Origin: Syntrophorhabdaceae bacterium
GTDB taxonomy: Bacteria; Desulfobacterota; Syntrophorhabdia; Syntrophorhabdales; Syntrophorhabdaceae
DNA length: 64,000 nt
Reading direction: 5' to 3'
NCBI GenBank assembly: GCA_963666485.2
Contig: CAXXUO010000001.1
Span: 64,001 to 128,000 of the forward strand
Each line of letters starts with the position of its first letter. The stretch's first letter is position 1. The position numbers and the translations under genes were made by a program. Positions 6,845-44,674 of the stretch are shown here, piece after piece. The notes under the pieces were generated by a model. It was not told where the DNA came from, searched no databases, and saw only the letters and a list, made by a program, of their open reading frames with translations.

Positions 6845-7378
6845 ATGCCTGAGCGTTCTTTTCTCACCGAGATGGAAACAGTGACAGGGGTGGCCGTTTC
6901 CGGGTGCTATCAGTGTTTCCGCTGCACGAACGGATGTCCCGCTGCCCGGGATATGGACATCCTTCCCCACAGGCTGATCGGGTACATCATAGCGGGGGAA
7001 CGCGACCGTGTCCTTGGATCACAGTCGATCTGGGCCTGCCTGCAATGCGCCGCGTGCAGCATCCGGTGCCCGAACGGCATCGATGTTGCCCGCATCTTCT
7101 CGGCTTTGCAACGGATGTCCGTCGAATCGGGCAGGGCCGCATCAGCGGATATCCACGATTTCGATACCCTGTTTATCGAAAGTATCGCCCGGCATGGCCG
7201 GATGTATGAGCTTGGAACGGTGGCGCGATACCGCCTTCAGCGAAAAGAGCTTTTCAAGGACCTTCGTATGGGGTTCTCCATGATAAGGAAAAGGAGGATC
7301 GGCCTTTTTCCCCATAACGCGGCCGGCAGAAAACAGATACGTTCCCTTATGAAAAAAACGGGTATGAACGGCGAATGA
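6845..7378 (+). CDS. hdrC: Heterodisulfide reductase subunit C-like 4Fe-4S dicluster protein
   Basis: CYQCFRCTNGCP and CLQCAACSIRCP. Start could alternatively be TTG 6827. Confidence 0.88.
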   Translation: MPERSFLTEMETVTGVAVSGCYQCFRCTNGCPAARDMDILPHRLIGYIIAGERDRVLGSQSIWACLQCAACSIRCPNGIDVARIFSALQRMSVESGRAASADIHDFDTLFIESIARHGRMYELGTVARYRLQRKELFKDLRMGFSMIRKRRIGLFPHNAAGRKQIRSLMKKTGMNGE

Positions 7379-8241: not shown

Positions 8242-8250
8242 GCGGCAGAC

Positions 8251-8640
8251 ATGCAGACACATGACGATAACGGGACCGATACCCGGCTCTCCATGATCGA
8301 GTTCGTCAGAACCTTCGACCCGGAGGGAGCCGAGAAACTCGAGAGGCTCCTTAAGAAACAGGACATCCTCATGAAAGGAAATGTCTACGGAGAGAGATTT
8401 ACCGCGCTGCAGTTCTCTCTGGTTTTTGACCCGCTTCTCAGACGCGCCGTCGAGAGGTCGCATATCCTCGAAAACCTTGGCCGCGGGCCGGCTACGGTAC
8501 CCGAGCTTGCCCGGGCCCTCGACCTGAAGCCAAATACCGTCTTCGACCACATAAAAGAGCTCGTGCGGCGCGACCGCGTGGAAATTGCCGGGTACGACGA
8601 CCGCGACGCCCGGTACAGGAGGAAAGAGACTGATCGATAG
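8251..8640 (+). CDS. Small winged helix-turn-helix-like protein inside the hdr operon
   Basis: GNVYGE segment, then ILENL..PATVPELARALDLKPNTVFDHIKELVRRDRV. Confidence 0.7.
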   Translation: MQTHDDNGTDTRLSMIEFVRTFDPEGAEKLERLLKKQDILMKGNVYGERFTALQFSLVFDPLLRRAVERSHILENLGRGPATVPELARALDLKPNTVFDHIKELVRRDRVEIAGYDDRDARYRRKETDR

Positions 8641-13102: not shown

Positions 13103-13445
13103 TGAGTAGCAAACAACCATCTGTATACATACTGGCAAGTGGAAAAAATGGGACTCTTTATATTGGCGTAACATCCGATTTAATTAAACGGGTCTGGGAA
13201 CATAAAAATGATGTAGTCGAAGGCTTCACAAAAAAATATCAGGTACATTATCTTGTCCGGTATGAAGTGCACGACAATATGGAATCTGCAATTTCGCGTG
13301 AAAAAGCGATAAAAGAATGGAAAAGACTTTGGAAACTGAGAATCATCGAAAAAGACAATCCGAAATGGAGAGATTTGTACGAGAAATTGTTAGGTTAAGA
13401 GGTAAATTACGGTTTTACTGGATTCCGGCCTTCGCCGGAATGACG
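13066..13445 (+). mobile_element. Putative REP-flanked GIY-YIG nuclease element inserted between hdrA and mvhD
   Basis: Left CGTCATCCCGGCGAAGGCCGGGATCCAG (13066-13093) and inverted right CTGGATTCCGGCCTTCGCCGGAATGACG (13418-13445) flank an AT-rich nuclease ORF. Confidence 0.65.
13099..13398 (+). CDS. Small standalone GIY-YIG nuclease family protein
   Basis: VYILAS..GTLYIGVTSDLIKRVWEHK, AISREKAIKEWKRLWK and NPKW motifs; 99 aa. Confidence 0.92.
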   Translation: MMSSKQPSVYILASGKNGTLYIGVTSDLIKRVWEHKNDVVEGFTKKYQVHYLVRYEVHDNMESAISREKAIKEWKRLWKLRIIEKDNPKWRDLYEKLLG

Positions 13446-13679
13446 TTGGTGGAGGCAATCCGGGATGGAGAGATTTGTACGAGAAATTGTTAGGTTAAGA
13501 GGTAAATTACGGTTTTACTGGATTCCGGCCTTCGCCGGAATGACGTTGGTGGAGGCAATCCGGAATGGAGAGATTTGTACGAGAAATTGTTAGGCTTATA
13601 GGTAAATTACGGTTTTACTGGATTCCGGCCTTCGCCGGAATGACGTCGGTGGAGACTGCCGGAATGACATTGGTGGAGG
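13356..13679 (+). repeat. Three near-identical 100-bp tandem repeats plus a short partial copy
   Basis: Units start at 13356, 13456 and 13556 (CAATCCG..ATGGAGAGATTTGTACGAG...). Each carries the GIY-YIG 3' end and one palindrome. Confidence 0.95.
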
Positions 13680-13688
13680 GTTGTTGAG

Positions 13689-14111
13689 TTGGATAATTTT
13701 ACACCCCAGATAATCGCTTTTTGTTGCGAATACTGAGGGTACTCTGCGGCGGACCTGGCAGGTTCGATGAGGCTTTCCTATCCGGCATCGGTGAAGATCA
13801 TTAAGGTGCCGTGCACGGGCAGGGTAGATACGATCCATATACTCGAGGCCTTCGAAAACGGGGCGGACGGGGTGTGCCTCGTGGGGTGCCTCGAAGGCGA
13901 CTGCCATTTCATCGCGGGGAACATCCGGGCGGGAAAACGCGTTGAGTATGCGAGGGCCCTTCTCGATGAAACGGGCGTGGGAGCCGGGCGCCTCGCAATG
14001 TACAACCTTTCCGCATCCGACGGCCGCAAATTCGCCCGGGTGATGCGGGAAATGACGGAGAAGATACGGGAGATGGGGGAAAGTCCCATAAAAGCGGGCG
14101 ATAGGCGATAG
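13689..14111 (+). CDS. mvhD: MvhD-type 2Fe-2S subunit, putative selenoprotein (TGA 13734-13736)
   Basis: TTG start with GGAGG SD. MDNFTPQIIAFCCEY-TGA-GYSAADLAGSMRLSYP continues in frame into ORF 13767 (PCTGR, GCLEGDCHF). The TGA sits at the conserved Cys of the MvhD CCxxC motif. Confidence 0.88.
13751..13765 (+). promoter_or_regulatory. Candidate bacterial SECIS hairpin of mvhD
   Basis: GGACCT-GGC-AGGTTC. The loop starts with G, 21 nt after the TGA. Confidence 0.6.
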
Positions 14112-14188
14112 GCGATGGGCGATAGGAAAGATACTGACCGGATCTTTCACTGCGAAGCCCATTGCCCATTGCCCATTTCCCATTGCCT
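14096..14188. repeat. Heptamer tandem repeats (GGCGATA)n and (GCCCATT)n
   Basis: Seen directly at the mvhD stop and before the metV SD. Confidence 0.8.
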
Positions 14189-14199
14189 GGAGGTATTTT

Positions 14200-14868
14200 A
14201 TGATCGTTGCCGATAGAAAACCCTTTGACGAGATCATGCAAATGATCGCGCCCTATGAAAAAATACTGCTCCTGGGGTGCAATGAGTGCGTGACTGTCTG
14301 CGCGGTGGGCGGGACGAAAGAGACGGCCCTGCTTGCATCGCAGATACGGATGAAACGGCAGGTCGAAGGACGCGGGGTGATTGTCGGGGAGAAAACCCTG
14401 GAGCGGCAGTGCGACCCGGAATATGCGGACACGCTCGCCGGTTCCGTGGAAGAGTATGACGCGGTCCTGTCGCTCGCCTGCGGGTGCGGCGTTCAGTTCA
14501 TTTCCGAGAGATATCCCGGCAGACCGGTCCTCCCGGCGGTCAATACCCGGTTCATGGGGGTGACGGAACAGGCAGGGGTCTGGGCGGAGCGGTGCCAGGG
14601 GTGCGGCAATTGCGTTCTCGACAAGACGTACGGGATATGCCCTGTTGCCCGGTGTGCGAAGAGCATCATGAATGGCCCGTGCGGCGGTTCTCACGGCGGT
14701 GCCTGTGAAGTGAACGACGACCTTCCGTGCGCGTGGCAGCTCATTATCGACCGGCTGAAGGCGCTAGGATCGCTCGATGCATACAGTGAAATTGAAAAAC
14801 CCCGCGACTGGTCGACGTCCCGCGACGGCGGGCCTCGCAGGAGAGTAAGGGAGGACATGACATTATGA
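14200..14868 (+). CDS. metV: Methylenetetrahydrofolate reductase MetV subunit
   Basis: GCNECVTVCAVGG, ERQCDPE, ACGCGVQ and CQGCGNC..GICPVARCAKSIMNGPCGG..C motifs. Confidence 0.9.
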   Translation: MIVADRKPFDEIMQMIAPYEKILLLGCNECVTVCAVGGTKETALLASQIRMKRQVEGRGVIVGEKTLERQCDPEYADTLAGSVEEYDAVLSLACGCGVQFISERYPGRPVLPAVNTRFMGVTEQAGVWAERCQGCGNCVLDKTYGICPVARCAKSIMNGPCGGSHGGACEVNDDLPCAWQLIIDRLKALGSLDAYSEIEKPRDWSTSRDGGPRRRVREDMTL

Positions 14869-15791
14869 CGCCGGCAGGCAATCTCAAAAGGGTCCTCGCG
14901 CAGGGAAATTTTGCGGTAACGGCAGAGTGCGGTCCCCCGCGCGGCGCCGACCCGGATGTCATAGCGAGAAAAGGCGACCTCCTTAAAGGGTATGTCGATG
15001 CCGTGAATGTCACAGACAACCAGACTGCGGTGGTACGCATGTCGAGCCTGGCGTCGTGCGTGATCTTGAAGAATATGGGCCTTGACCCGGTCCTCCAGAT
15101 GACGGTCAGGGACCGCAACCGCATAGCACTGCAGAGTGACGTGCTGGGAGCGGCGGCCCTCGGCATCAAGAATATTCTCTGCCTGACAGGCGACCACCAG
15201 TCGTTCGGGGACCATCCCGGCGCGAAGAACGTGCACGATATCGATTCGGTCCAGCTGATCGACACGGTGCGCATGATGCGCGACGAAGGAAAATTCTTAA
15301 GCGGCCAGGAGGTAAAAGGAAAACCGGACGTTTTCATCGGCTGCGTCGAAAACCCTTTCGCGGACCCCTTCGAGATCCGGGCCATGCGGGTCGCAAAAAA
15401 GGTAAAGGCAGGGGCCCAGTTCGTTCAAACGCAATGTGTCTTCAATGTCGAAAAATTTGCACGCTGGATGGAAATGGTCCGGGAACTCGGGGCACATGAA
15501 AGGGCGCACATCCTGGCCGGGATCACACCAATGAAATCACCGGGCATGGCCCGCTACATGAAGAATTCCGTACCCGGCATGGACGTGCCCGACGGCCTCA
15601 TAGAGCGAATCGCATCGGTCCCCAAAGAAAAATACCGCGACGAAGGTCTCGCGATATGTCTCGAGACGATCGACGCGGTAAGGAATATCGAGGGCATAGC
15701 GGGCGTTCACATCATGGCCATAGAATGGGAGGACATAGTCCCCGCGATCGTGAAAGAGGCCGGCCTCTTCCCGCGCCCGGTACCCGCTTAA
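14865..15791 (+). CDS. metF: Methylenetetrahydrofolate reductase MetF
   Basis: VTAECGPPRG, NVTDNQ, RDRNRIALQS, LTGDH, FVQTQ and GVHIM motifs. Confidence 0.92.
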   Translation: MTPAGNLKRVLAQGNFAVTAECGPPRGADPDVIARKGDLLKGYVDAVNVTDNQTAVVRMSSLASCVILKNMGLDPVLQMTVRDRNRIALQSDVLGAAALGIKNILCLTGDHQSFGDHPGAKNVHDIDSVQLIDTVRMMRDEGKFLSGQEVKGKPDVFIGCVENPFADPFEIRAMRVAKKVKAGAQFVQTQCVFNVEKFARWMEMVRELGAHERAHILAGITPMKSPGMARYMKNSVPGMDVPDGLIERIASVPKEKYRDEGLAICLETIDAVRNIEGIAGVHIMAIEWEDIVPAIVKEAGLFPRPVPA

Positions 15792-30689: not shown

Positions 30690-30718
30690 TTGACAAAAAC
30701 CGGCCGTCCCGTTACCAT
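30690..30718 (+). promoter_or_regulatory. Sigma70-type promoter of the cytochrome-rhodanese pair
   Basis: TTGACA-N17-TACCAT, 14 nt before ATG 30733. Confidence 0.65.
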
Positions 30719-30732
30719 TTTGTCAGGTGCCC

Positions 30733-31974
30733 ATGCGGAAATATCCCCTCTGTATATGCCTGTTCCTGGCATTTGTCATCGCCATTTTCACTTGCACCGC
30801 ATACGGAGCGGACAGCGGCTGCGTTAATTGCCACACAAACGAAAAAATGATGCGCGCCCTCCACACGCCGGTGAAGGCCGATCTGTCCGAAGGCGTCGGG
30901 TGAGCGGGCGCACCTCCGTCGGTGCCGGCGGAGATCCAATATAAGGCATATCTCGTCAATCCCAAGATCCTCGCCACAAATCCCCATTTCGCGGAAGGTT
31001 GTGCCTTCTGCCATAAGGGCAACGAAAAGGCGGCAACCCGGGAGAAGGCGCACGCAGGGCTCGTAAAAAAACCTTCATCCAACATTGACGTATGTGCGCC
31101 GTGCCACGACAAGGCGGCAAAGGTATACAAGGATTCACTGCATTATACGACTGAGGGGTTCAGGCACGGCGTTTCGGCACGGTTCTCCGCAAAAGAGAAG
31201 AAAATATTCGATGATAAGGTATTCCAGGGATCGTGCAGGAGTTGTCACGCAACGTGCGGCGATTGCCATGTTTCGTCCCCGAAAATAGGCGGCATATCGA
31301 CCGGCCTTATCAAGGGGCATGAATTCGTGGCAAAAGAGGACAAGACATGTGCAACCTGCCACGGCGGGAGGGTCTATCCCGAATTTACCGGGGATTTCGG
31401 CGGGCAGGCGGATGTGCACTACCAGAAAGGGATGAACTGCCTGAGTTGCCACAACAAGGCGGAGCTTCACGGGACGGGGACCCGGTATGTGACAAAGACG
31501 GATGTCAAAGAGAAGCCTTCCTGTACGAACTGCCATAAGCCCGGCACCGAAACAACAGAAAAGGCCCGGTCATCACATACGCAGCACACAGGAAAAGTAA
31601 GCTGCTACGCCTGCCACGCAGGCGGTTCTTATACGAACTGCTACGATTGCCATCTCGGAAAAGGCGCTACCCCGAAACCCGGGTTTTACCTGGGGTTGAA
31701 CCCCAAAGACAGGAAGACCGTAACGACATTGCGCCTTGTGCCCACCGTACGCAATACATTTAAATCGGCCGGCATAAAGCAGGAAAATTTCGACAAGGTC
31801 CCGAACTACTGGGGTACCGCAACGCACAACATAAAGAAGCGGACCGACAGGACACGCTCCTGCGATGTCTGTCACACGGACAAGCAGAATTTCCTTACGC
31901 AGCAGACATTGATCAAGGGTGGTTCGAAAGCGAACAACCTCCTCATCTATACCCCGAAACCCATAAAACCTTAA
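30733..31974 (+). CDS. Exported multiheme cytochrome c (11 CxxCH), putative selenoprotein (TGA 30901-30903), 413 aa
   Basis: ATG 30733 gives a signal peptide, CVNCH and ..SEGVG-TGA-AGAPPSV, in frame with ORF 30922, which has 10 further CxxCH motifs. Confidence 0.82.
30914..30933 (+). promoter_or_regulatory. Candidate bacterial SECIS hairpin
   Basis: CTCCGTCG-GTGC-CGGCGGAG. The 8-bp stem starts 11 nt after the TGA and the loop begins GU. Confidence 0.72.
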
Positions 31975-31987
31975 AAGGAGACCGGCA

Positions 31988-32881
31988 ATGAAAAAAGCGA
32001 CAACATTCGCACTATTGGTATTTTCCTTGATGTTCCTCTTTCCCGCCCTGGGCATGACGCGGTCGATAGACCCGGTCATCTCCACGGACTGGCTCGCCGC
32101 CAATGCAAAGGACCCGAAGATCGTCATCGTTGACATCAGGAAGGTCGAGGATTACAAGGCCGGGCATATTCCGAATGCCGTGAACATCTTTGTCAATACA
32201 TGGGCGATAACCCAGGGGAAACTCCGCAACCAGGTCCCGCCGATAGATGACCTGGCCGACATAATAAACTCTGCCGGGATAGCGGCCGATTCAAAAGTGG
32301 TCGTTGTCGGCAACACCGATAATCCCCCCAACCGCTCAGGCATCATGCGGGTAGCCTGGACCCTCGAATATGCAGGCATAGAAAATGTTGCGATCCTTGA
32401 CGGGGGATGGGAGAAATGGGTTGCCGAGAAAAAACCCGTTGCAACGGATATGGTAAAGCCCAAAGCTTCCAATTTCCAGCCAAAGCCCAATAAGGCCATG
32501 CCGGCCTCAAAGGATGACGTCAAGGCTGCCATAGGAAAAGAGACGATCGTCGATGCCCGGGACCCTGATTTTTACCAGGGCAAAAAGAAACTCGACTTTG
32601 TGGCCCGGGCGGGCAGGATAAAAACCGCCGTCAACCTTCCTTCGATGGCGGCGTACAACCCGAACGGCACATTCAAGGACAAAAAAGAGCTTGCGGACAT
32701 GGCCGCGAAAGCCGTGGGAAGCGACCTCAACAAGAATATAATCGTTTATTGTGACACAGGCAGACTCGCCACGGTCTGGGCATACCTTTTAAAAGACGTC
32801 CTGGGATATAAGAACGTCCGGATGTACGACGGCTCATCGGAAGAATGGATGGCGGATCCGACTGCACCGATAGAACCGTAA
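31988..32881 (+). CDS. Exported two-domain rhodanese/sulfurtransferase
   Basis: Signal peptide, GHIPNAVN, LDGGWEKW, VDAR, YCDTGRLA (catalytic Cys) and YDGSSEEW motifs. Confidence 0.92.
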   Translation: MKKATTFALLVFSLMFLFPALGMTRSIDPVISTDWLAANAKDPKIVIVDIRKVEDYKAGHIPNAVNIFVNTWAITQGKLRNQVPPIDDLADIINSAGIAADSKVVVVGNTDNPPNRSGIMRVAWTLEYAGIENVAILDGGWEKWVAEKKPVATDMVKPKASNFQPKPNKAMPASKDDVKAAIGKETIVDARDPDFYQGKKKLDFVARAGRIKTAVNLPSMAAYNPNGTFKDKKELADMAAKAVGSDLNKNIIVYCDTGRLATVWAYLLKDVLGYKNVRMYDGSSEEWMADPTAPIEP

Positions 32882-32902: not shown

Positions 32903-32940
32903 AAAAAACCGCTATCCCATCCGGGGTAGCGGTTTTTTTT
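32903..32940. terminator. Bidirectional rho-independent terminator
   Basis: A6-CCGCTATCCC-ATCC-GGGGTAGCGG-T8 between the convergent rhodanese and lexA genes. Confidence 0.85.
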
Positions 32941-32983: not shown

Positions 32984-33616
32984 TTACGGATCCATCCGCA
33001 AAACCATCACCACCCTCCCCTGCACCCGGACGTTTTCCGCATCGTGGAACATGGGCAGCATGTACGGGTTGCACGGCTGAAGCCTTATCTTCTGATCCTT
33101 TTCGTAATAGACCTTTTTGAGAGTCACTTCCTGTTCGTTTTCAAGCCAGCAGGCGGCGACATCACCATTCTTCACGGAATCGGCCTTCTCCATGATCACG
33201 ATGTCCGAATCGGCTATCATGGCGTCCACCATGGAATTGCCCCTGACCCTGAGTGCGAAGAGGTCCCTTCCCTTTCGCATGACGTCGCGCGGGACATCGA
33301 CCATCTCCTGGTCCGAAGCAGATTCTTTATCCATGGAAGGAACATCTATGGGCTGGCCAGCCGCGATCACGCCGAGGAGCGGCACACAGGCAGGTCCCTC
33401 TTCATCTCCCACCACACCGATGCTCCGCGAACGCACCCTGTCCTTTGTGATCAGCCCGGCTTCCTTGAGCTGCTCCAGGTGATACTGAACGACGGACGGG
33501 CTTTTCACCCCGCAATGGCTCGCAACCTCGCGCACGGACGGTGAATAGCCGTTATCGCGCCGAAACGCCCTGATAAAATCGAGGATCTCTTCACGGGTGT
33601 TTGTTTTTCGTACCAT
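32984..33616 (-). CDS. lexA: Transcriptional repressor LexA
   Basis: GYSPSVREVA..SPSVVQYHL HTH, IAAG cleavage site, GNSM (Ser) and TLKK (Lys). Confidence 0.95.
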   Translation of the reverse strand: MVRKTNTREEILDFIRAFRRDNGYSPSVREVASHCGVKSPSVVQYHLEQLKEAGLITKDRVRSRSIGVVGDEEGPACVPLLGVIAAGQPIDVPSMDKESASDQEMVDVPRDVMRKGRDLFALRVRGNSMVDAMIADSDIVIMEKADSVKNGDVAACWLENEQEVTLKKVYYEKDQKIRLQPCNPYMLPMFHDAENVRVQGRVVMVLRMDP

Positions 33617-33630
33617 AGAACAAGTGTACT
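33617..33630. promoter_or_regulatory. Candidate LexA box abutting the lexA start codon
   Basis: AGAAC-AAGT-GTACT, overlapping a minus-strand -10 element TACACT. Confidence 0.7.
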
Positions 33631-33670
33631 ACAAACAAGGAAAACTTTACAACAAATTTATAAAACCTGC

Positions 33671-33851
33671 CGTCATTCCCGCGAAGCGGGAATCCAGTGT
33701 CTTTTTTGTTATTTTTTTGCGTAATACCCGGAAACATATAAACATTTGTGCAAGTAAATCAGGCCGCCGGCTGCCCCCTACAATAAGAAGGCTCAACACT
33801 ATAGAAGATTAAAAGATAAAGACGCTGGATTCCCGCTTCGCGGGAATGACG
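33671..33851. repeat. Inverted pair of CGTC palindromes around an AT-rich spacer
   Basis: CGTCATTCCCGCGAAGCGGGAATCCAGTGTC ... GACGCTGGATTCCCGCTTCGCGGGAATGACG. Confidence 0.9.
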
Positions 33852-33932
33852 ACCGATTTTTTAATTCTGAATAATAACCGGAAATTATCTAACTTTGAAC
33901 CTTGAACTTTGAACCTTGAACAAAAATTTTTC

Positions 33933-33961
33933 TTGCCAAATTAGAACAGATGTTCTAATAT
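33933..33961 (+). promoter_or_regulatory. Promoter of the imuY operon containing a perfect LexA-box palindrome
   Basis: TTGCCA-N17-TAATAT with TTAGAAC-AGAT-GTTCTAA at 33941-33958; ATG 6 nt after the -10. Confidence 0.8.
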
Positions 33962-33967
33962 TGCGTT

Positions 33968-35158
33968 ATGCGAGTTGCTTGTCTCTACATCCCCCATTTT
34001 TATTGCCAGGTCGAATACCGGAAAGACCCTTCCCTCAGAACAAAACCTGTCGTAATCATAGGCATGCCCGAGGAAAGAGGGTTTATCATGGATTGCTCCG
34101 AAGAGCTTACCCGAAGAGGAGTTGCTCCCTCGATGGCACTCAAGGACGCCTATCATCTTTGCTATGATGCGGCCCCGCTACTGGCCCGCAGAAAGGAATA
34201 CGAGACCCTGTGGGAAGACATCCTTTCTTCCGTCGCGGGGATAACCCTGCGCATCGAACCAAAAGAACCGGGCACGGTATTTCTTGATATTACGAGGCTT
34301 CCCGGCATGTTCAGAAGCGAGGAGCAGATCGCACACGCCTTGACCAGGATGGTGTCGGAAAAATTTGGCCTCGATGTCAGGATGGGGATCGGGAATTCCC
34401 GTTTCTTGAGCGGTGAGGCCGCCTCGTCGGCAGCCGGGGCTGTGCGTGTCATTCCTCCGGGAATGGAAAGGGATTTCCTATCCTCTATCAAGATCGGGCG
34501 CCTTGCGATACCGGACGAGATCCGCGAAAGGCTCGATCTTCTCGGTCTCGATTCGCTCGGGCAGATCGGCGCATTCACCTTTTCGGCGCTTACCTCGCAG
34601 TTCGGGGCTGCAGGAAAAGAATTGTGGGAGATCGCAAACGGGGTCGGCGACCAGGGCAGGATACTGCCCGCCTTCACTATTACCGACATAGACCGGGAAA
34701 TGGTCTGTGACGGGCCGGTCCATTCACGGCAGGAGATCAAGGCGGCCCTTCTCGAACTCCTCGACGGGCTGTGCCTCGAACTCGAGGAACTCGGTAAGGC
34801 CTGCCGCACGATAAAGCTCGTTCTCGACCTCGAGAACAGGACTTTTTTTGAAAAAGAATTCTTTATGCACGGCCCCACGGTACACAAGGACGACATGCTG
34901 CTGAGGATAATGGCAGGGCTTGAAGGGATCGAACTTGCAAGCCCGGTCAGGATAATGAGCGTACGGGCCGGGGCCCTTGTCAATTATGCGGGAAAACAGG
35001 AGAAGCTTTTCCGGAACCGCAACCGCATTGAAAGAAGCATGAAAGAGATCAGGGGATTTCTGAAAACCAAGTACGGATCGATGCCGCTTGCACGCGCTGT
35101 CAGGAACGACGGCGGCACCCTCCTGCCCGATGACAGGTTTATTTTTGTCGAACCATGA
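33968..35158 (+). CDS. Y-family DNA polymerase-like protein (ImuB/ImuY type, probably inactive)
   Basis: DinB-like pattern, but the catalytic acidic residues appear replaced (YIPHFYCQVE; IEPKEPGTVFLD). Lies upstream of dnaE2. Confidence 0.85.
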   Translation: MRVACLYIPHFYCQVEYRKDPSLRTKPVVIIGMPEERGFIMDCSEELTRRGVAPSMALKDAYHLCYDAAPLLARRKEYETLWEDILSSVAGITLRIEPKEPGTVFLDITRLPGMFRSEEQIAHALTRMVSEKFGLDVRMGIGNSRFLSGEAASSAAGAVRVIPPGMERDFLSSIKIGRLAIPDEIRERLDLLGLDSLGQIGAFTFSALTSQFGAAGKELWEIANGVGDQGRILPAFTITDIDREMVCDGPVHSRQEIKAALLELLDGLCLELEELGKACRTIKLVLDLENRTFFEKEFFMHGPTVHKDDMLLRIMAGLEGIELASPVRIMSVRAGALVNYAGKQEKLFRNRNRIERSMKEIRGFLKTKYGSMPLARAVRNDGGTLLPDDRFIFVEP

Positions 35159-35406
35159 AAGCATCACCCTCCGATCCCGAACCTTTGCCCGTTATTGCCG
35201 TTAAGAACAGGCCGGCATGGGTCATCCTGAAAAAGAAAAAGCAGAAAGTCCGGGAGATTGTCAACATCTGGCGGATCGATGACGCCTGGTGGCGCAAACC
35301 CGTTGCCCGCATGTATTATGCGCTTGAACTTGAAAGCGGGGCCCGGATAACGGTCTTCCAGGACCTTGATTCAGGTGACTGGTACCGGCAAAACTGGTCT
35401 GCCTGA
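35155..35406 (+). CDS. Small mutagenesis-cassette protein (DUF6504-like)
   Basis: 83 aa, WRIDDAWW..RMYY..VFQDLDSGDWY. ATGA overlap with the upstream gene. Confidence 0.75.
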   Translation: MKASPSDPEPLPVIAVKNRPAWVILKKKKQKVREIVNIWRIDDAWWRKPVARMYYALELESGARITVFQDLDSGDWYRQNWSA

Positions 35407-35411
35407 GATCC

Positions 35412-38400
35412 ATGTACACCGAACTGCACGCCCATTCAAATTTTTCTTTTCTCGACGGGGCCTCACCTACCCGCGCCCTCGTCGAACGGGCCGCGTCCCT
35501 CGGCATGGACACCCTTGCCATCACCGATCACGACGGGCTCTACAACGCCTGCCTCTTTACGAGGCTCGCAAAAGAGGCAGGTATAAAACCCATTATCGGC
35601 GCCGAACTGACGCTTGAAGGGGAGCGGCACCTTACATTACTCGTCGAAAACGGCAGGGGATACGAAAATTTGTCCCACCTTATCACCCGCGGGCACCTTG
35701 CGGGCTCCAAGGGGAAGCCGGTCTTATCCCCGGCAGACCTTCAGGCCCGCACGGAAGGGCTCGTCTGCCTGTCCGGCTGCGCACGATCGGAGATAAACCG
35801 TCTTCTCATACAACGGGAAAGGCGGGCCGCATACGAGGCGGCAAAGGCATACACCGAGCTTTTCGGCAAAGACAATTTTTATATCGAGCTCGAGGGGCAT
35901 CTTTATCCCGAAGACAGGGGCCTGTGCCGTCAACTGATCGAGATGGCCCGGGAATTGGGCCTCAAGACCGTTGCTTCGAATAATGTCCATTACGCGACAC
36001 GGGACGGGCATACCCTTCACGATGTCCTCACCTGCATACAGCACGGGGCGACCCTGGAGAGATCGGCCGCCATCCGGAGGCTCAATTCCGAATTTTATCT
36101 CAAAAGCCATGAGGAGATGCTCGAGCTTCCCTTTATACCCCGGGACGCCATCCTCAGGACCGAAGAGGTAGCCCGAAGGTGCACATTCAACCTCGATTTC
36201 TCTTCCTTTTCCTATCCTGATTTCCCCCTGCCGGTTGATGAGACAGCAGCGGGATTTCTTAAAAAATTGGTAATGCAAAAGGCCGGCGAGCGCTATGGGG
36301 CCCTGACGGAAGAGGTCCTGGCGCGGATCGAGGACGAGACCGGCCTTATCGAGCAAAAAGGGCTTTCGGGATATTTCCTCGTTGTCTGGGACATCATCGA
36401 ATACGCCCGAAAAATGGGGATATCCGCGCAGGGCAGAGGCTCGGCGGCAAGCTCCGTCGTGGCATATGCCCTCGGTATAACCCCCGTCGACCCGATACGC
36501 CACAGGCTTTTCGTGGGGCGTTTTCTCAATGAACTGAGCATCCCCGATATCGACATCGATATCGCGACAAACAGGCGCGAAGAGGTTATCAGATACGCCT
36601 ACGACACCTACGGCCGTGAGCATGCCGCGATGGTCTGCACCTACGTGACGTTCCAGGGGCGCAATGCAATGCGTGAGGTTGGAAAGGTGCTCGGCCTTCC
36701 CGCGCATATCATAGACAGGATGGCGAAGTCTACTTCCGCGTATGGCGGCCACGGGGCCGTGGAGTCATTGAGGGAGGTCCCCGAGTTCAGATCATATCTC
36801 GACTCCGGGGCCTGGGGGCATTTCAGCAGGCTATGCGGGCAGATAGCCGATTTCCCGCGCCATCTCTCGATCCATGTCGGGGGGATGATCATTACCCCGA
36901 AACCGATCGCGGACATTGTGCCCCAGGAGCACGCCCGCGCCGAAGGAAGGATCGTCTGCCAGTGGGACAAGGATTCCGTCGATGACGCGGGGCTTATCAA
37001 GTTTGATCTCCTGGGCCTGAGGATGCTTTCCCTTATCGATGATGCGAAGGAGCTTATCCAGAAGCACCGGGGCATTGACCTCGATCTCGACCGCCTTCCC
37101 CCCGACGACCCCCGCGTTTACGACATGATAAGCGAGGCGGACACGGTCGGGATATTCCAGGTTGAGAGCCGGGCGCAGATGCAGACATTGCCCAAAATGA
37201 GGCCGCGCACCTTCGAAGACCTCACCATCGAAGTGTCCATCGTTAGGCCGGGCCCCCTCCAGGGGAACATGGTCCATCCCTTCATACGCCGCAGGCAGGG
37301 CAAAGAGCCCGTTGTCCACCTGCACCCCAAACTGGCCCCCATCCTCGATGAAACACTCGGCGTGATACTTTTCCAGGAACAGATCCTCGAGGTGGCAATG
37401 GCCATAGCCGGATTCACGGCGGGTGAAGGGAACAAGCTGCGTAAGGTAATGGGGCGCAAGAATGCACGGGAGGAACTCCTCGCATGGCACGAGCGTTTTC
37501 TCGAAGGGGCAAAAAGGCAAGGCATCGTGAGCGGCATCGCCTCGAAGATATTCGACCATATCTGCGGGTTTGCCGATTTCGGTTTTTGCAAGAGCCACGC
37601 CGCCAGTTTTGCGATCCTGTGCTACCGGTCCGCCTACCTGAAATATCATTATCCGGCAGAGTTTTATTGCGCCCTCCTCAACAACCAGCCCATGGGTTTT
37701 TATGAACCGGAGGTCATCATAGGGGACGCGAAAAGGCACAACGTCCCTATCCTTCCCGCGGATATCAACAGGAGCACGTGGAACTGCACCATTGAGGAAG
37801 GTTCTGTCAGGACAGGTTTCAGGTATGTGAAGGGGATCGGAGAGGAAAAAGGGGACCGTATTGTCACGGCGCGCGATCGGGGAGGAACATATATCTCGCT
37901 GCAGGATGTCGCCGACCGGTCGGGGCTCGACATGAGGTCCCTGCAAAACCTCGTTGCTGTCGGCGCATTGAGCGCCATCAAAAATTCCCGCAGACAGCTT
38001 CTCTGGGAAGCGGGGACAATACGGACAGCAGGGCTTACAGGGCTCGATGCCGGCGCGATGCATGAAAAACTCCCCATCCCCGAGATGACGGCACGCGAGG
38101 AGACGATAACCGACTATATCTACCAGGGGTTCTCCCCCGCGCGCCACATAATCAAGCTTTACCGGAAAAAACTGGATATGCTCGGAGCGGTGCCGAGCGA
38201 CAGGCTTATCCGCTGTTCTTCCGGAAGCAAGGTGATCGTTGCAGGGTACATGGTGTGCCTGCAGATGCCCCCGACAGCAAAGGGAAAGTTTTCATTCATC
38301 ACGCTTGAAGACGAAGACGGTCTTATCAACCTTGTGGTAAGGCCGGAGGTTTACAAGGCGTACCGCACTATCATACGCCTCGAGCCGTTCCTTCTTGTCG

Positions 38401-38480
38401 AAGGCGTTGTCGAAAAAAAGGGCAGCCTGATCAACATCAAGGTGAGCAAGGTCGAAAGCCTTGCCCCGTCGTTCCGGTAA
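35412..38480 (+). CDS. dnaE2: Error-prone DNA polymerase III alpha subunit
   Basis: PHP motif ELHAHSNFSFLDGAS, GRGSAAS, PDIDID, PRHLSIHVGG, KFDLLGL, FCKSHA, NNQPMGFY and FITLEDE. Confidence 0.93.
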   Translation: MYTELHAHSNFSFLDGASPTRALVERAASLGMDTLAITDHDGLYNACLFTRLAKEAGIKPIIGAELTLEGERHLTLLVENGRGYENLSHLITRGHLAGSKGKPVLSPADLQARTEGLVCLSGCARSEINRLLIQRERRAAYEAAKAYTELFGKDNFYIELEGHLYPEDRGLCRQLIEMARELGLKTVASNNVHYATRDGHTLHDVLTCIQHGATLERSAAIRRLNSEFYLKSHEEMLELPFIPRDAILRTEEVARRCTFNLDFSSFSYPDFPLPVDETAAGFLKKLVMQKAGERYGALTEEVLARIEDETGLIEQKGLSGYFLVVWDIIEYARKMGISAQGRGSAASSVVAYALGITPVDPIRHRLFVGRFLNELSIPDIDIDIATNRREEVIRYAYDTYGREHAAMVCTYVTFQGRNAMREVGKVLGLPAHIIDRMAKSTSAYGGHGAVESLREVPEFRSYLDSGAWGHFSRLCGQIADFPRHLSIHVGGMIITPKPIADIVPQEHARAEGRIVCQWDKDSVDDAGLIKFDLLGLRMLSLIDDAKELIQKHRGIDLDLDRLPPDDPRVYDMISEADTVGIFQVESRAQMQTLPKMRPRTFEDLTIEVSIVRPGPLQGNMVHPFIRRRQGKEPVVHLHPKLAPILDETLGVILFQEQILEVAMAIAGFTAGEGNKLRKVMGRKNAREELLAWHERFLEGAKRQGIVSGIASKIFDHICGFADFGFCKSHAASFAILCYRSAYLKYHYPAEFYCALLNNQPMGFYEPEVIIGDAKRHNVPILPADINRSTWNCTIEEGSVRTGFRYVKGIGEEKGDRIVTARDRGGTYISLQDVADRSGLDMRSLQNLVAVGALSAIKNSRRQLLWEAGTIRTAGLTGLDAGAMHEKLPIPEMTAREETITDYIYQGFSPARHIIKLYRKKLDMLGAVPSDRLIRCSSGSKVIVAGYMVCLQMPPTAKGKFSFITLEDEDGLINLVVRPEVYKAYRTIIRLEPFLLVEGVVEKKGSLINIKVSKVESLAPSFR

Positions 38481-40411: not shown

Positions 40412-41191
40412 CTATTTTTTGTCCTGTTCCCGTGCTATAAGCGCTGCACCGAGCGCGGCCGTGATCTGGGGATGATCGGGAACAAAGAGTTTCGCGCCAA
40501 GTTCCGCGCCAAGCGCATTGACGAGCCCGATATCCATTGCCCCGCCGCCTGTCACGGCAAAGTCGGGATTGAGCCCGACGCGCATCGCCAGCGTCACGAT
40601 CTTCGACGCCATGGCATTGTGAATTCCCGCCAGTATATCGGCCGGGGATGCCCCCTCCGATATGCGGGACACCGCTTCCGATTCGGCGAAGACAGCGCAT
40701 GCTGTTGTGAACTCTACAGGCTTCTGCGCTTTCAACGATAGTTCCCCGATGTCTGCCACATTCATATGCAGGATGCGTGCGGCTACCTGGAGGAACTTGC
40801 CGCTTCCCCCGGCGCATTTTTCGTTCATGATGAAGTTCGCAAGCCTTCCCTCGTCGTCGAGCCGGATCGCCCGGGAATACTGGGCCCCCACATCCATGAG
40901 AGTTTTCACGGAAGGGAAGAGGTGATGGACCCCGATGGCATGGCACGAAATGTCCGTTGACGTATCGTCGGCAAAATCCACCATGTTACCGCCATACCCT
41001 GCCGCAACCGTGCGTGCCACATCAGCCCGGGTAATTCCGATCTCATCGAGCGCCGCTTTTGCCGCCAGCGTGCCCGCCTCCCGGTAATCCCCCCCGGATG
41101 GTATTACGGCGTAGGACCGGATCTCGCCGTCTTCAAGGATGACCGCCTTCGAATACCCGGAACCCACATCTATGCCAAGTACAAATGACAC
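40412..41191 (-). CDS. BcrA/BcrD-family ATP-binding activase subunit
   Basis: GTG 41191 with GAGGT SD; GIDVGS, AGYG, DISCHA, DVGAQ, MNEKCAGGSGKF and CAVFAESE motifs. Confidence 0.88.
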   Translation of the reverse strand: MSFVLGIDVGSGYSKAVILEDGEIRSYAVIPSGGDYREAGTLAAKAALDEIGITRADVARTVAAGYGGNMVDFADDTSTDISCHAIGVHHLFPSVKTLMDVGAQYSRAIRLDDEGRLANFIMNEKCAGGSGKFLQVAARILHMNVADIGELSLKAQKPVEFTTACAVFAESEAVSRISEGASPADILAGIHNAMASKIVTLAMRVGLNPDFAVTGGGAMDIGLVNALGAELGAKLFVPDHPQITAALGAALIAREQDKK

Positions 41192-41201
41192 TATTATTAC
41201 C

Positions 41202-42041
41202 TCATGCGAAGAATGTCGCTTCTTCCAGTTTCTTTTCGCTGCGCGGCGGTTTTTGCCCTTCGGCCGCATATTTTGTGTAGATGTCCTTACCCATCAGCGC
41301 GGCACCCAATGCCCCCGTTATGAGAGGTTCCGGGGGAACGAGGAGTTCCCTGCCGAATTTGGATTCCAGCGCCTTCACGAGGCCGGTGTTCTTCGCCCCG
41401 CCTCCCGTGACAGCTATATCGGGCTCGACATTAAGCTTCCGGACGAGGGCCGCGATCCGCGTTGCAACCGCATCGTGGATCCCGGCAATGAGATTCGCGA
41501 TAGGCTCGCCCGTTGCCAGGCGCGAGATGATCTCCTGTTCGGCAAAAACGGTGCACGTGCTGCTGACAGGGGCTATCCTTTCCGCAGATATCGATATCTC
41601 ACCGATCTTGTTGAGGGGTACGCCGAGAGAATCGGCGATGATCTCGAGAAAGCGGCCCGTACCGGCGGCGCATTTGTCGTTCATGACAAAGTTCATGACT
41701 TTGCCGTTTAAGATCTTGATGCCTTTACTATCCTGACCGCCGACATCGATGACGGTTTTAACAGAGGGGAGGAGGCTATGGAGGCCTTTTGCGTGGCAGG
41801 TGATTTCAGTAATTTGTCGATCAGCAAAGGGAACGTTGATCCTGCCGTATCCAGTAGCAACAATGTATGTCAGGTCGTCGAAGGAGAGGCGCGCTTGTCC
41901 GAGCGCCTCCTCCATCACTCTGTTTGCTAATTTTCTATGCTCGGGCCCCGTCGGCCCTATAAGCGACGCTTCGATCCTGTCGCTTACGATAACCACCTTG
42001 GTCATCGTGGAGCCGATGTCGACACCGGCAAAATATTCCAT
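41202..42041 (-). CDS. BcrA/BcrD-family ATP-binding activase subunit
   Basis: GVDIGSTMTK, TGYGR, EITCHA, DVGGQDSK, MNDKCAAGTGRF and CTVFAE motifs. Confidence 0.92.
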   Translation of the reverse strand: MEYFAGVDIGSTMTKVVIVSDRIEASLIGPTGPEHRKLANRVMEEALGQARLSFDDLTYIVATGYGRINVPFADRQITEITCHAKGLHSLLPSVKTVIDVGGQDSKGIKILNGKVMNFVMNDKCAAGTGRFLEIIADSLGVPLNKIGEISISAERIAPVSSTCTVFAEQEIISRLATGEPIANLIAGIHDAVATRIAALVRKLNVEPDIAVTGGGAKNTGLVKALESKFGRELLVPPEPLITGALGAALMGKDIYTKYAAEGQKPPRSEKKLEEATFFA

Positions 42042-42082
42042 GTACTGCTCCTATAAATAAATCCAGGCTTGCGCCGCGTTCC

Positions 42083-43408
42083 CTAGCTTCTCGCCTTATG
42101 AGCCGCAAGGGTCTCGATGAACGCGTCTATCCTGTTGTGCGTGTCCGCTTCGTTATAGGAGCTGATATCAACGATATCGCCTTCCATGATCAGGATGGGG
42201 ATATCCTTGTATACTTTCTTCAGTGTCGCTGCCTGCTGCATAATACCCGCGTGCCAGCTTCTGCAGGAGAAGGCTGAGTGGAACACGGCGCCGTCACATT
42301 TGTAATCTTCGATATACTCGATGATCCTTTCTACCTTCGGGGTTGAGCCCGGGCGCTTCTTTGCCGCATCGTACCAGTGCGTCCAGTAGCGGACCCATCT
42401 CCATGCGATGTGCTCGAGCGGATCGTTTGTTTTCGGGATGTCGAGCCGTTCTATCTTCTCGCAGCCGCGATACGTCACTTCCACCGGGAACACGACGCCC
42501 TTGCTGTTGAAATACTGGAAATCTCCCAGCGCGAACCAGCTCGGAAGGCCGGCGGCCCAGATGACCCTGAATTTTTCCGGGTTGGCGACGCCGACGCCGT
42601 CCGCGATCTTCTGCTCCAGCTCGGCCTTCAGGCTGACATAAAAGTCATATGCTTCCTGGGTGCCGAGGTTGAATGTCAACGGGACCATGGTGTTCATCGC
42701 GTCGCCGGTATCCATCGGCGTCGGGATGTGCTTGCGCAGTTCGTACGTATCGATGAAAAGGTCCCATGTCTTGTCGGAAAGCTCGACGGTTTTCGCCAGG
42801 CGGTCCCAGTCCATCTTCTTGCCCGTGATCTTTTCGCAGAACTTCACTGTCTCGTGGAGCTCTTCTTTGGCATATTTAACGTATAATGCTTCAACTTCGT
42901 GGTGATCTGCCTTCGGGTCCCACGGGGGATAATACATGTTGGTGACGAACACGGGGACATCCTGCTGATAATGCTGGGTTGCCTGCGGCCATTTGAACCG
43001 CGGGTCGCACAGGAGCTGGCCGTTGCCGAGCATCATATCCGGCCGCGCCATGCCGCCCCAGGGTGCCCCTTCGGGCGCCTGGCCGAGCTCTTCGCGCATC
43101 ATGTCGAAGCCGATGTTGCAGGTCGCATATGTGCAAAGTGACCGGGAGAAGTTGTCCGATTCCGCCTTCTGGAGATATTTCTCGGCATCGCGCTTGGCTG
43201 CGCAGACACCGGAGAAGCTCTCACCCCACGCCGGGACGATGTCCATGGCGCGCATGATCTCGTCCTGCCCGTCAGCGATGAACGCTGCGGCGACCTTCTT
43301 GCCCTCTTCTTTTGCCTTTAATGTTGCAGACAGGTTTCCCCGTACGAATTTCGGTATACTTGCTGCCGTTGAGGTTGCTACCGCTCTTCCTTTTTTTTCT
43401 TCAGCCAT
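42083..43408 (-). CDS. Benzoyl-CoA reductase / 2-hydroxyacyl-CoA dehydratase family subunit (BcrB/BzdO-like)
   Basis: SRSLCTY, LCDPRFKW, DGAVFHSAFSCR and EGDIVD..RIDAFIETL motifs. Confidence 0.82.
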   Translation of the reverse strand: MAEEKKGRAVATSTAASIPKFVRGNLSATLKAKEEGKKVAAAFIADGQDEIMRAMDIVPAWGESFSGVCAAKRDAEKYLQKAESDNFSRSLCTYATCNIGFDMMREELGQAPEGAPWGGMARPDMMLGNGQLLCDPRFKWPQATQHYQQDVPVFVTNMYYPPWDPKADHHEVEALYVKYAKEELHETVKFCEKITGKKMDWDRLAKTVELSDKTWDLFIDTYELRKHIPTPMDTGDAMNTMVPLTFNLGTQEAYDFYVSLKAELEQKIADGVGVANPEKFRVIWAAGLPSWFALGDFQYFNSKGVVFPVEVTYRGCEKIERLDIPKTNDPLEHIAWRWVRYWTHWYDAAKKRPGSTPKVERIIEYIEDYKCDGAVFHSAFSCRSWHAGIMQQAATLKKVYKDIPILIMEGDIVDISSYNEADTHNRIDAFIETLAAHKARS

Positions 43409-43434
43409 GGTGGTGTCTCCTTATCTCTCTTCCG

Positions 43435-44586
43435 TTATGCGATCATCTCGAGGAAAGCCTCGATCCTGGTCTTGACCCGTGCGAGGGACGACGTTGAATA
43501 CTCGTCTTCCAGGTACAGCACAGGCGCTCCCGCCGCTTCGACGTAGCTCTTGATAGCCGGTACTTCAAATCCATAGGGGTCGCAATACTTGTAGATAAAG
43601 AGGATAACTCCGTCCACCTTGAAATCCTTCACGTAATTCTTCATGTGTCCGAAACGTTCCTCAAGGATGCCCTGGTACGTGGGGGCCGAACCGATAAATG
43701 TCGTCGGCACTTTCAGTTTTCTCAGGTACCGCTCTGCAATTCCCTGGAGCGGGTCCGCCGTAGCATCGACATCCTGCCAGTACATTTTGGAGCCGGTTGA
43801 AAGATCGTCCATGACGAGGTACGCGCCGGCCGATTCGATGGCCTCGATCACCGCGACATCGTCAATCTGATCACCGATTATCATGATGCGTTTCGCCTTG
43901 GGGTCTCCTGCCGCAGGCGTGCGGCCTTTTACTTCTTTTATGACCGATTCGATAAGAGCACTCGACTCTTCGACCGGAAGGCTCATCGCAGCCACACAGA
44001 CCTTCATCATTTCAACGCCGGAGATGAGGGGGGGATTCGATTTCCGAAGGTCATAGAGGTCCCTCATGAGTTTTCTGTTCTGATTGTGGGCCGCGACCGC
44101 CTTCGCGATCGCTTCGTCGGTTATCGTATTTCCGGTATATTTTTCGAGTGATTTAACAAACATCCGCAGGATCTCTTTCGTAAAAGCTATCGACGGATCG
44201 TCCGCAACGTGCGGGAGGTTCAGGAAATGCCAGTATGGAAGGTTTAAGGTATAGCTCCATGTCTCGTTCGTGCGGTCAATCGAGTCGCACTGATGAGGCA
44301 GGAGCATGCCATCCAGAAAATCATATTTTCCCTTGACCGCGGCATCGAAGACATTGCGCACAAATGGACACACGATCGTCTCCATGTACGCATCGCCTTT
44401 TGTTATTGATTCGGAAACATTCCCTTTGAGCCTTATCGGGAGAACGCCCGCTGCTGTCAGGATCTCAACCGGACCAAGCGCGGACAGGTACCCGATCACC
44501 TTTTTCCCCGACGCTTTCAATTCTCTCGCTCTCGACCCGTACTGGGTGTAAAGCTTTTCGGCGGCTGCCAAACCTATATCTGTCAT
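43435..44586 (-). CDS. Benzoyl-CoA reductase / 2-hydroxyacyl-CoA dehydratase family subunit (BcrC/BzdN-like)
   Basis: PVEILTAAG, IVCPFVR, PHQCDS, KYCDPYGFE and TRIEAFLEMI motifs; GGAG SD before ATG 44586. Confidence 0.85.
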   Translation of the reverse strand: MTDIGLAAAEKLYTQYGSRARELKASGKKVIGYLSALGPVEILTAAGVLPIRLKGNVSESITKGDAYMETIVCPFVRNVFDAAVKGKYDFLDGMLLPHQCDSIDRTNETWSYTLNLPYWHFLNLPHVADDPSIAFTKEILRMFVKSLEKYTGNTITDEAIAKAVAAHNQNRKLMRDLYDLRKSNPPLISGVEMMKVCVAAMSLPVEESSALIESVIKEVKGRTPAAGDPKAKRIMIIGDQIDDVAVIEAIESAGAYLVMDDLSTGSKMYWQDVDATADPLQGIAERYLRKLKVPTTFIGSAPTYQGILEERFGHMKNYVKDFKVDGVILFIYKYCDPYGFEVPAIKSYVEAAGAPVLYLEDEYSTSSLARVKTRIEAFLEMIA

Positions 44587-44674
44587 CTTCACTCCTTGCA
44601 TCCCGCCCTGCCAATACGGGATCTCTTTATGGGATAGCCAAGCCAGGCGTCAAAGGGGCCAATCTTGGCACACA

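Follow-up and report, generated by a model that had tools for sequence, protein, structure and literature searches.

A probable 11-heme cytochrome c selenoprotein genetically coupled to an exported rhodanese in syntrophic bacteria

The closest described system to the locus reported here is MccSep/ExtKL of Geobacter sulfurreducens (gsu2937-2936). According to its description in Science Advances (2026), this cytochrome contains five hemes, a C-terminal immunoglobulin (Ig)-like domain and a selenocysteine (Sec), Sec325, in a D-G-U-P motif (PMC13510729). The same paper describes a strictly conserved Cys239 that ligates heme 2, a mobile Sec loop, and demonstrated polysulfide and selenite reductase activities (PMC13510729). 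The available part of a 2026 review gives three cytochrome-type entries in its table of prokaryotic selenoprotein families: ExtKL (NF040886), the GSU2204 family (NF041027) and the octaheme tetrathionate reductase (OTR) family (TIGR04315). In NCBIfam, ext is named as a selenite/tellurite reduction operon, and ExtH as its rhodanese-like protein. Here we describe a pair of genes in a 64,000-nucleotide stretch of Syntrophorhabdaceae DNA (contig CAXXUO010000001.1, hereafter the window). The first encodes a candidate Sec-containing 11-heme cytochrome c, and the second an exported rhodanese.

Calling of open reading frames (ORFs) with translation table 11 divides the cytochrome gene. A 58-residue ORF ends at a TGA codon (position 30903), and a second ORF in the same frame starts behind it at a GTG. 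The first-pass annotation had pointed out that this second ORF starts late and lacks a signal peptide, and had proposed that the TGA hides a longer protein. The first point is correct and the second is strongly supported. Read through the TGA, the frame encodes 413 residues with a signal peptide and 11 CxxCH heme motifs. The first motif, CVNCH, is followed by S-E-G-V-G-U-A-G-A-P-P-S-V and then by ten more. U57, the residue assigned to the TGA, is located 22 residues past the first motif, in a glycine-rich loop that is probably mobile. The N-terminus has the n, h and c regions of a signal peptide. In an AlphaFold2 model built from 99 sequences, residues 5-22 form a helix, followed by a low-confidence linker (residues 22-26).

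Pfam finds c7, c3 and MtrC domain II/IV families in the read-through protein. The 11 motifs are invariant or nearly so in our alignments, and C30, C33 and H34 of the first motif do not vary anywhere in the wide alignment of 99 rows, which includes distant relatives. These motifs, the export signal (assigned by eye) and conserved distal His residues identify the protein as a periplasmic multiheme c-type cytochrome. Heme attachment to c-type cytochromes happens outside the cytoplasm. Since the sequence downstream of the TGA lacks an export signal of its own, the two halves make sense only as one polypeptide.

The TGA is conserved in relatives of the gene. One genome per GTDB species was scanned by tblastn, which gave 533 confirmed stretches, and the best 80 of these 533 were kept for all locus counts. 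Seventy-eight loci were aligned at the TGA column, while L049 and L041 were checked singly. TGA is present at the Sec column in all 80 loci; TAA, TAG and sense codons are found in none. The tblastn matches run through the TGA (query residues 1-412) and both of its flanks are conserved, the pattern that the first-pass annotation had suggested looking for with the read-through protein. A hydrophobic N-terminus comparable to that in the window and a CxxCH motif are located in frame upstream of the TGA in 80/80 loci. The consensus around the column is E-G-[EV]-G-U-A-G-x-P-P-x-V. An ATG in the accepted range could be assigned in 62 of the 78 aligned loci (the remaining 16 have none in that range), and all 62 read-through translations are 399-432 residues long with exactly 11 CxxCH motifs.

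The 80 loci span Syntrophia, Syntrophorhabdia, Desulfuromonadia, Desulfobacteria, Nitrospirota, Deferrimicrobia and others. Carriers include Syntrophaceae, Smithella, Syntrophorhabdaceae, Geobacteraceae, Pelobacter, Candidatus Deferrimicrobium and one Spirochaetales bin, and the gene is present in the cultured strains Desulfonema magnum (L078) and Geobacter sp. OR-1 (L054). That all 80 related loci keep an in-frame TGA between conserved coding sequences goes far beyond chance.

Database entries carry the same division. Among the best 120 of 667 homologous protein clusters, 113 are 305-362 residues long and start after the TGA, so the earlier expectation that standard annotation splits the protein is borne out. 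The near-identical entry P0003 (98% identity, 350 residues) is the truncated form, as are 112 similar entries. Where names are given, they read "cytochrome c3 family protein" or "hypothetical protein".

A hairpin resembling a Sec insertion sequence (SECIS) follows the TGA. Its two arms, 30914-30921 and 30926-30933, form eight base pairs, one of which is G-U, and the GUGC loop occupies 30922-30925. The stem begins at the 11th nucleotide past the TGA. The hairpin was described in the same terms in the first-pass annotation, and it is both the centroid structure and part of the minimum free energy fold. The E. coli fdhF SECIS follows a rule of spacing and loop G-U, which the 11-nt spacing and the loop G-U in the window resemble.

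The hairpin region was aligned in 79 sequences, gap-free over 45 nt from the TGA, and 75 distinct rows were used for pair counts. Across the six-pair core (columns 15-20 with 27-32), standard pairs are present in 72, 74, 75, 71, 61 and 75 of the 75 rows. Loop columns 22-23 are invariant G and U. Compensatory double changes are found in at least one sequence at five of the eight pairs, a number that none of 500 shuffles reaches. The four-fold degenerate codons in the stem are nearly fixed: Pro+4 is CCT in 75/78, Pro+5 CCG in 73/78, Pro+8 CCG in 30/31 and Ala+9 GCG in 61/61. Third-position entropy is 0-0.44 bits at the stem codons, compared to 1.4-2.0 bits at the neighboring Ala+1, Gly+2, Ala+3, Gly-3, Val+18 and Pro+27. 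Because synonymous sites in the stem hardly change while those next to it vary, selection acts here on the RNA and not on the protein. The sequence comparisons strongly support recoding of the UGA. We infer that the inserted residue is Sec and not the product of some other read-through, and the protein is very probably a genuine selenoprotein.

Our analysis also revealed genetic coupling between the cytochrome and the rhodanese. The first-pass annotation described the second gene as a closely spaced, signal-peptide-bearing, two-domain rhodanese with a catalytic Cys and a terminator behind it, and each of these features was recovered. The ATG is located 13 nt past the cytochrome stop and is preceded by AAGGAG. 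Two Rhodanese domains are recognized (Pfam E 1.3e-39), and the nearest solved structures are tandem thiosulfate sulfurtransferases, with 3hwi at E 6.7e-35. The catalytic Cys255 is invariant in the rhodanese alignment (A5); its column is kept in 58 of 60 aligned partner rows, and the other two are fragments. Partner rhodaneses in the related loci also carry signal peptides. About half of them contain a second Cys six residues past the catalytic one (C-D-T-G-K-V-C), which could be a resolving or relay cysteine; the window copy has Ala there.

With the window rhodanese (P0002-type) as query, tblastn found matches in 67/80 loci. In 62 of these 67, the match is located 14-152 nt 3' of the cytochrome gene, although some matches are cut by contig ends and that in L007 is only a 39-residue remnant. 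The rhodanese is directly upstream in four loci (L056, L063, L067 and L079) and 1 kb downstream in L044. It thus adjoins the cytochrome gene in 66/80 loci. Clustering of all flanking ORFs identified no other broadly conserved neighbor among the loci. In addition, two of 17 long representatives scanned, P0143 (652 residues) and P0169 (715 residues), are natural fusions of a cytochrome and a tandem rhodanese in distant relatives. The rhodanese is at the C-terminus in both, the same order as the genes in the window. Both are metagenomic representatives, and P0143 starts just past the TGA column and may itself be a truncated annotation. A survey of rhodanese co-occurrence had been suggested earlier, and the link is stronger than could be known from one locus. 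Adjacency and fusion are good evidence that the cytochrome and the rhodanese share a function, though not for a particular chemistry.

Several Smithella and Syntrophaceae loci (L045, L051, L055, L060, L064, L070, L071, L075, L077, L080 and others) place the Sec cytochrome within a larger periplasmic redox cluster. This cluster contains a flavoprotein that has a Tat signal and belongs to the flavocytochrome c subfamily (TIGR01813, 444 bits), a small cytochrome with 5-6 hemes and a second rhodanese of 250 residues. It also contains a cytochrome of 600-670 residues with 7-8 CxxCH motifs, for which no PDB chain or specific NCBIfam model was matched.

The AlphaFold2 model of the cytochrome has a mean predicted local distance difference test score (pLDDT) of 86.5 and a predicted template modeling (TM) score of 0.80. 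Nine His residues outside the CxxCH motifs are conserved in the 63-row Sec clade (85, 107, 137, 196, 229, 246, 282, 285 and 365), as is Met234. Apart from the Sec column, no Cys outside the motifs is conserved in this clade. Since nine His and Met234 are available as distal ligands for 11 hemes, at least one heme probably has an open or unusual sixth position. By this count, such a heme would be the natural catalytic site. Basic residues fixed in the Sec clade (K204, R213, R340, K369, R370, R373 and R375) could bind an anionic substrate. The glycine-flanked Sec loop recalls the G-C-U-G tail of thioredoxin reductase. By analogy, a glycine-flanked loop modeled with low confidence also recalls the mobile Sec loop of MccSep.

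In Wolinella succinogenes, the periplasmic rhodanese-type carrier Sud passes polysulfide sulfur to the terminal reductase Psr. We propose the same logic here, while noting that Psr is a molybdopterin enzyme and not a cytochrome and that Sud is a single-domain rhodanese. Positions 30733-32881 would constitute a two-gene operon for a periplasmic module. UGA codon 57 would be decoded as Sec with the help of the SECIS hairpin 11 nt downstream. Cys255 of the rhodanese would bind sulfane sulfur or selenium in persulfide form for presentation to the cytochrome, or free polysulfide might be used instead. The U57 selenolate would then attack the substrate to form a Se-S (or Se-Se) adduct, which electrons from the heme chain would reduce, releasing sulfide (or selenide). 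The cytochrome would in this way be a terminal chalcogen reductase, like MccSep/ExtKL with ExtH or Psr with Sud, but from a different protein family.

The explanation that we favor is thus a Sec-dependent 11-heme chalcogen reductase that has the rhodanese as its partner and sulfane sulfur, polysulfide or selenium as its substrate, and we consider it reasonably probable. It builds on what the sequences show: the recoded UGA, the conserved hairpin, the 11-heme architecture, the export signals and the coupling to the rhodanese. For a role in sulfur or selenium reduction with polysulfide or sulfane sulfur as the leading substrate, the chances seem about even, perhaps slightly better. What we infer from this arrangement is the substrate, which way electrons flow and the transfer from rhodanese to Sec. 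Tentatively, the family may represent an independent invention of a multiheme selenoenzyme, with Sec on a glycine hinge next to heme 1 of an 11-heme wire and its substrate fed by a dedicated periplasmic rhodanese. Syntrophia, Syntrophorhabdia, some Nitrospirota and certain relatives of Geobacter might then have in it a so far unrecognized terminal reductase for elemental sulfur/polysulfide (or selenium). In a bolder variant, the selenolate may ligate or transiently bind heme iron.

Several observations weigh against the favored explanation. The 64-kb window contains no tRNA genes, no selA, selB or selD domains in the 54 ORFs scanned, and no other recognizable selenoprotein, in a read-through scan that is noisy in G+C-rich DNA. 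The sole outside hint that the lineage uses Sec comes from a preprint, which places Syntrophorhabdus aromaticivorans among the genomes with a selenocysteine-assisted (SAO) cassette. The stability of the hairpin is ordinary for its G+C-rich composition (z-score 0.47, 66-nt stretch). RNAalifold, run on the 79-sequence alignment, gave a different 4-pair structure and did not recover the hairpin. Rfam returned no family match, only two chance-level matches on the opposite strand around the TGA. The compensatory changes amount to six cells with a double change, and the overall percentage of paired positions is hardly above shuffles; the hairpin is for this reason supported by conservation and not by rich covariation. 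In the model, the Sec loop (residues 51-60) has a pLDDT of about 58. The partner is not obligatory either, as tblastn found no window-type rhodanese in 13/80 loci. Three of these 13 (L051, L064 and L070) have a different 250-residue rhodanese past an extra cytochrome gene. In five close Syntrophorhabdus-type loci (L003, L004, L005, L007 and L011), an Fe/Mn superoxide dismutase (SOD) gene is found at the rhodanese position; all of these but L007 belong to the 13.

The residues that replace Sec count on the same side. Seven of the best 120 database homologues (P0019, P0038, P0058, P0060, P0065, P0079 and P0080) are full length. Where the others would have Sec, these seven carry R, W, S, Y, W, A and R, and none has Cys. 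The first-pass annotation had named TAA/TAG or arbitrary residues at this position as grounds for doubt. TAA and TAG are absent from the 80 loci, whereas arbitrary residues do appear in these seven close homologues. Because R, W, S, Y and A are tolerated there, Sec must be dispensable for whatever these seven proteins do.

We placed them on a quick maximum-likelihood tree of 99 rows, from which the Sec loop columns were left out. The TGA family is recovered as a single clade (70 rows, SH-aLRT 100, stem length 1.02), and the seven sense-codon proteins are located inside it as single tips and one pair. The U label changes seven times on the tree, and the starred branches force at least five changes. 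The seven proteins appear to be recent independent escapes from UGA, in which the electron-transfer protein was kept and the Sec chemistry lost. Among distant relatives (27-38% identity), Cys is found at the aligned column in 12/29, often as G-C-G-G, although the loop alignment is uncertain at that distance. A Sec/Cys relationship seems to exist at long range only, as far as these alignments indicate.

The module may instead act on a chalcogen oxyanion or another sulfur compound (selenite, tellurite, thiosulfate or tetrathionate), with the rhodanese in selenium or thiosulfate handling. We regard this alternative as unlikely, but it survives better than the others. MccSep reduces selenite too (PMC13510729). 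The ext genes are named for selenite/tellurite reduction, and the window rhodanese matches the ExtH model (NF040901), although its 64.8 bits are far under the cut-off of 200. Its nearest solved relatives are thiosulfate sulfurtransferases. The best structural match of the cytochrome is a tetrathionate reductase, 1sp3, but this match is poor and the family model TIGR04315 is not matched. Nothing in the data discriminates between the substrates.

A Sec that serves one heme and not a substrate is a less probable alternative. Here Sec57 would be an axial ligand or redox tuner in a pure electron-transfer cytochrome, and the rhodanese would act elsewhere. The deficit of conserved distal ligands described above and the lack of a conserved extra Cys would fit this role, and so would the Cys at the column in some distant relatives. 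Cys-ligated hemes are known in TsdA, SoxAX and MccSep (PMC13510729). The tolerance of R, W, S, Y and A in seven relatives is easier to explain if only the potential of one heme shifts. However, the loop is glycine-flanked and poorly ordered in the model, which would be unlike a fixed axial ligand, and both the fusions and the adjacency to the rhodanese point to substrate chemistry. We know of no natural selenolate-ligated heme.

We consider it very improbable that the module serves in periplasmic oxidant defense, as a heme-fed Sec peroxidase or reductase that detoxifies peroxides or reactive sulfur species. Peroxidases that use Sec are known, and the SOD genes in the five close loci could be taken as a sign of such a role. 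These genes encode an N-terminal extension of about 50 residues (for example, L005:2932-3681). However, they follow the cytochrome after a gap of about 90-510 nt, and the rhodanese adjoins in 66/80 loci. L007 retains the 39-residue rhodanese remnant at 6296-6412 besides the SOD gene, which is located beyond it. This suggests that SOD replaced the rhodanese, and is not its equivalent as a partner. We give almost no credence to a TGA that acts as a true stop, whether in a pseudogene or between two separate proteins, or that a standard tRNA decodes. The window lacks Sec machinery, and W and R, whose codons are one transition from TGA and which near-cognate read-through can insert, occur among the sense-codon relatives. 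Against this, TGA is kept with both coding flanks in frame in 80/80 loci and never replaced by TAA/TAG, the hairpin is conserved at SECIS spacing under nucleotide-level constraint, the downstream product, lacking an export signal, could not become a mature c-type cytochrome, and distant relatives have Cys at the column. The true-stop and pseudogene readings are rejected.

The features of the locus are collected in Table 1. The candidate promoter noted in the first-pass annotation is present upstream of the ATG. Two promoter-like sites were found in the region compared to 1.8 expected from shuffles, and because such sites occur here at chance frequency, the match alone proves nothing. The genes around the pair are unrelated housekeeping genes: upstream is one for an HD-domain protein, and downstream are lexA and an IMS/DnaE2-type cassette. 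This indicates that the cytochrome and the rhodanese are a self-contained unit.

Table 1. Features of the cytochrome-rhodanese locus, in window coordinates
Feature	Coordinates	Strand	Description	Basis
Sigma-70-like promoter candidate	30690..30718	+	TTGACA (30690-30695), 17-nt spacer, TACCAT (30713-30718)	10/12 consensus positions
Full gene of the probable 11-heme cytochrome c selenoprotein	30733..31974	+	413 residues; Sec assigned to TGA 30901; stop codon TAA at 31972-31974	
Signal peptide	30733..30807	+	Residues 1-25; probable cleavage after A-Y-G	Read by eye
First heme motif	30820..30834	+	CVNCH, residues 30-34; outside the annotated ORF	
In-frame TGA	30901..30903	+	U57 in motif E-G-x-G-U-A-G-x-P-P	
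SECIS-like hairpin	30914..30933	+	8-bp stem, loop GUGC; conserved core 30915-30920 with 30927-30932	
Truncated table-11 ORF	30922..31974	+	GTG start, 350 residues, no signal peptide, 10 heme motifs	ORF calling
Exported tandem-domain rhodanese	31988..32881	+	297 residues, ATG start; catalytic Cys255 (TGT 32750-32752) in loop YCDTGR	
Intrinsic terminator	32903..32938	+	16-pair stem (7 G-C pairs), then T-run; closes the two-gene unit	

Three genes come directly past the terminator: lexA at 32984-33616 on the minus strand, a member of the impB/mucB/samB (IMS) family at 33968-35158 and, at 35412-38480, a second gene of the DNA polymerase III alpha type. Their layout (32984-38480) matches an SOS-inducible mutagenesis cassette, and lexA/IMS synteny is also found 3' of the cytochrome in the closest loci. 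Several other regions of the window were noted. A stretch at 6827-15791 contains HdrC-like and HdrB-like genes (6827-8241) and the gene for a fusion flavoprotein of 1505 residues (8585-13102), whose FAD, NAD and Fe-S domains are of the HdrA/NfnB type. It also contains a small GIY-YIG gene and, at 14865-15791, one for methylenetetrahydrofolate reductase. The stretch may be an electron-bifurcating module of the MetF-Hdr type. Located at 40412-44601 and 58548-59405 are genes for a BadF/BcrA-type ATPase and for three proteins of the 2-hydroxyglutaryl-CoA dehydratase D-component type. They are consistent with an anaerobe that degrades aromatic acids or hydroxyacyl-CoA, such as Syntrophorhabdus. On the minus strand at 738-3524, a 928-residue protein has a C-terminal autotransporter beta-domain (E 2e-60) and no recognized passenger domain.

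The family is large, with 533 stretches in the GTDB species genomes and 667 protein clusters. Its members are almost always recorded without a signal peptide, as "cytochrome c3 family" or "hypothetical", and are therefore overlooked both in selenoproteome surveys and in those of respiratory cytochromes. It looks like an unrecognized family of selenium-dependent reductases that act on sulfur or selenium in syntrophic bacteria. MccSep was shown to be the enzyme of Geobacter sulfur respiration only in 2026 (PMC13510729). A second, unrelated Sec-cytochrome family with a rhodanese suggests that selenium-plus-heme chemistry on sulfur is a recurrent solution. It also points to sulfur or selenium reduction in the syntrophic lineages of digesters and sediments. 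If this is true, a chalcogen electron sink would be available to organisms that are considered obligate syntrophs. The occurrence of the gene in cultured strains makes it testable.

How the locus relates to known families was analyzed with family models and structures. No Pfam or NCBIfam model covers the cytochrome; the matches are generic c7, c3 and MtrC-domain pieces together with sub-threshold Ext matches, so that the suggested comparison with multiheme models yielded no full-length match to a characterized family. ExtM, ExtN and ExtO score 21-44 bits compared to cut-offs of 200-800. NF040886 (ExtKL), TIGR04315 (OTR) and NF041027 (GSU2204) are not among the NCBIfam matches at E <= 0.1. A search of PDB by sequence gave nothing below E 0.079 for the cytochrome, and Foldseek gave no PDB match at E <= 0.001, in copies that perhaps do not include the MccSep entries or coordinates. 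The best Foldseek match, octaheme tetrathionate reductase 1sp3, has E 0.017, a TM score of 0.32-0.34 and a root mean square deviation of 14 Å. The next, HAO, an S-layer undecaheme cytochrome, MtrA and MccA, are at chance level.

The window rhodanese scores 102.9 bits on its best NCBIfam equivalog, whose cut-off is 250, and its score on NF040901 does not identify it as ExtH. It resembles tandem thiosulfate/3-mercaptopyruvate sulfurtransferases (3hwi, 3aax and 1uar) over its whole length (E 7e-35 to 5e-32), including an inactive N-terminal domain and a C-terminal catalytic Cys loop. Unlike them, it has a signal peptide and the loop C-D-T-G-R/K.

Like members of the OTR family, which the review lists among selenoprotein families and which has Sec-containing members, the cytochrome would be a multiheme periplasmic reductase of sulfur compounds. 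However, OTR proteins have eight hemes instead of 11, and membership was rejected on the heme number, the unmatched TIGR04315 and the weak structural match. Membership in the GSU2204 family is not supported, as NF041027 was not matched. The similarity to MccSep/ExtKL is more extensive. Both are periplasmic multiheme cytochromes c with one UGA-encoded Sec, a SECIS-like hairpin and a split annotation, both have a rhodanese-family gene in the same cluster (ExtH in the case of ExtKL), and the mobile Sec loop there has its likeness in the loop here (PMC13510729). The differences are large. MccSep/ExtKL has five hemes and an Ig-like domain, compared to 11 hemes here; U325 is located in D-G-U-P near the C-terminus, whereas U57 is in G-U-A-G near the N-terminus; and the heme-ligating Cys239 has no counterpart among conserved non-motif Cys in the 63-row Sec clade (PMC13510729). 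The first-pass annotation had judged the architecture to be unlike ExtKL, and the heme number, the Sec position, the missing ligating Cys and the unmatched NF040886 lead us to reject ExtKL membership. No description of this family was found in the main texts of the openly accessible papers searched. In our best reading, it is a new family that differs from the cytochrome selenoproteins in the sources used and is analogous, not homologous, to MccSep/ExtKL.

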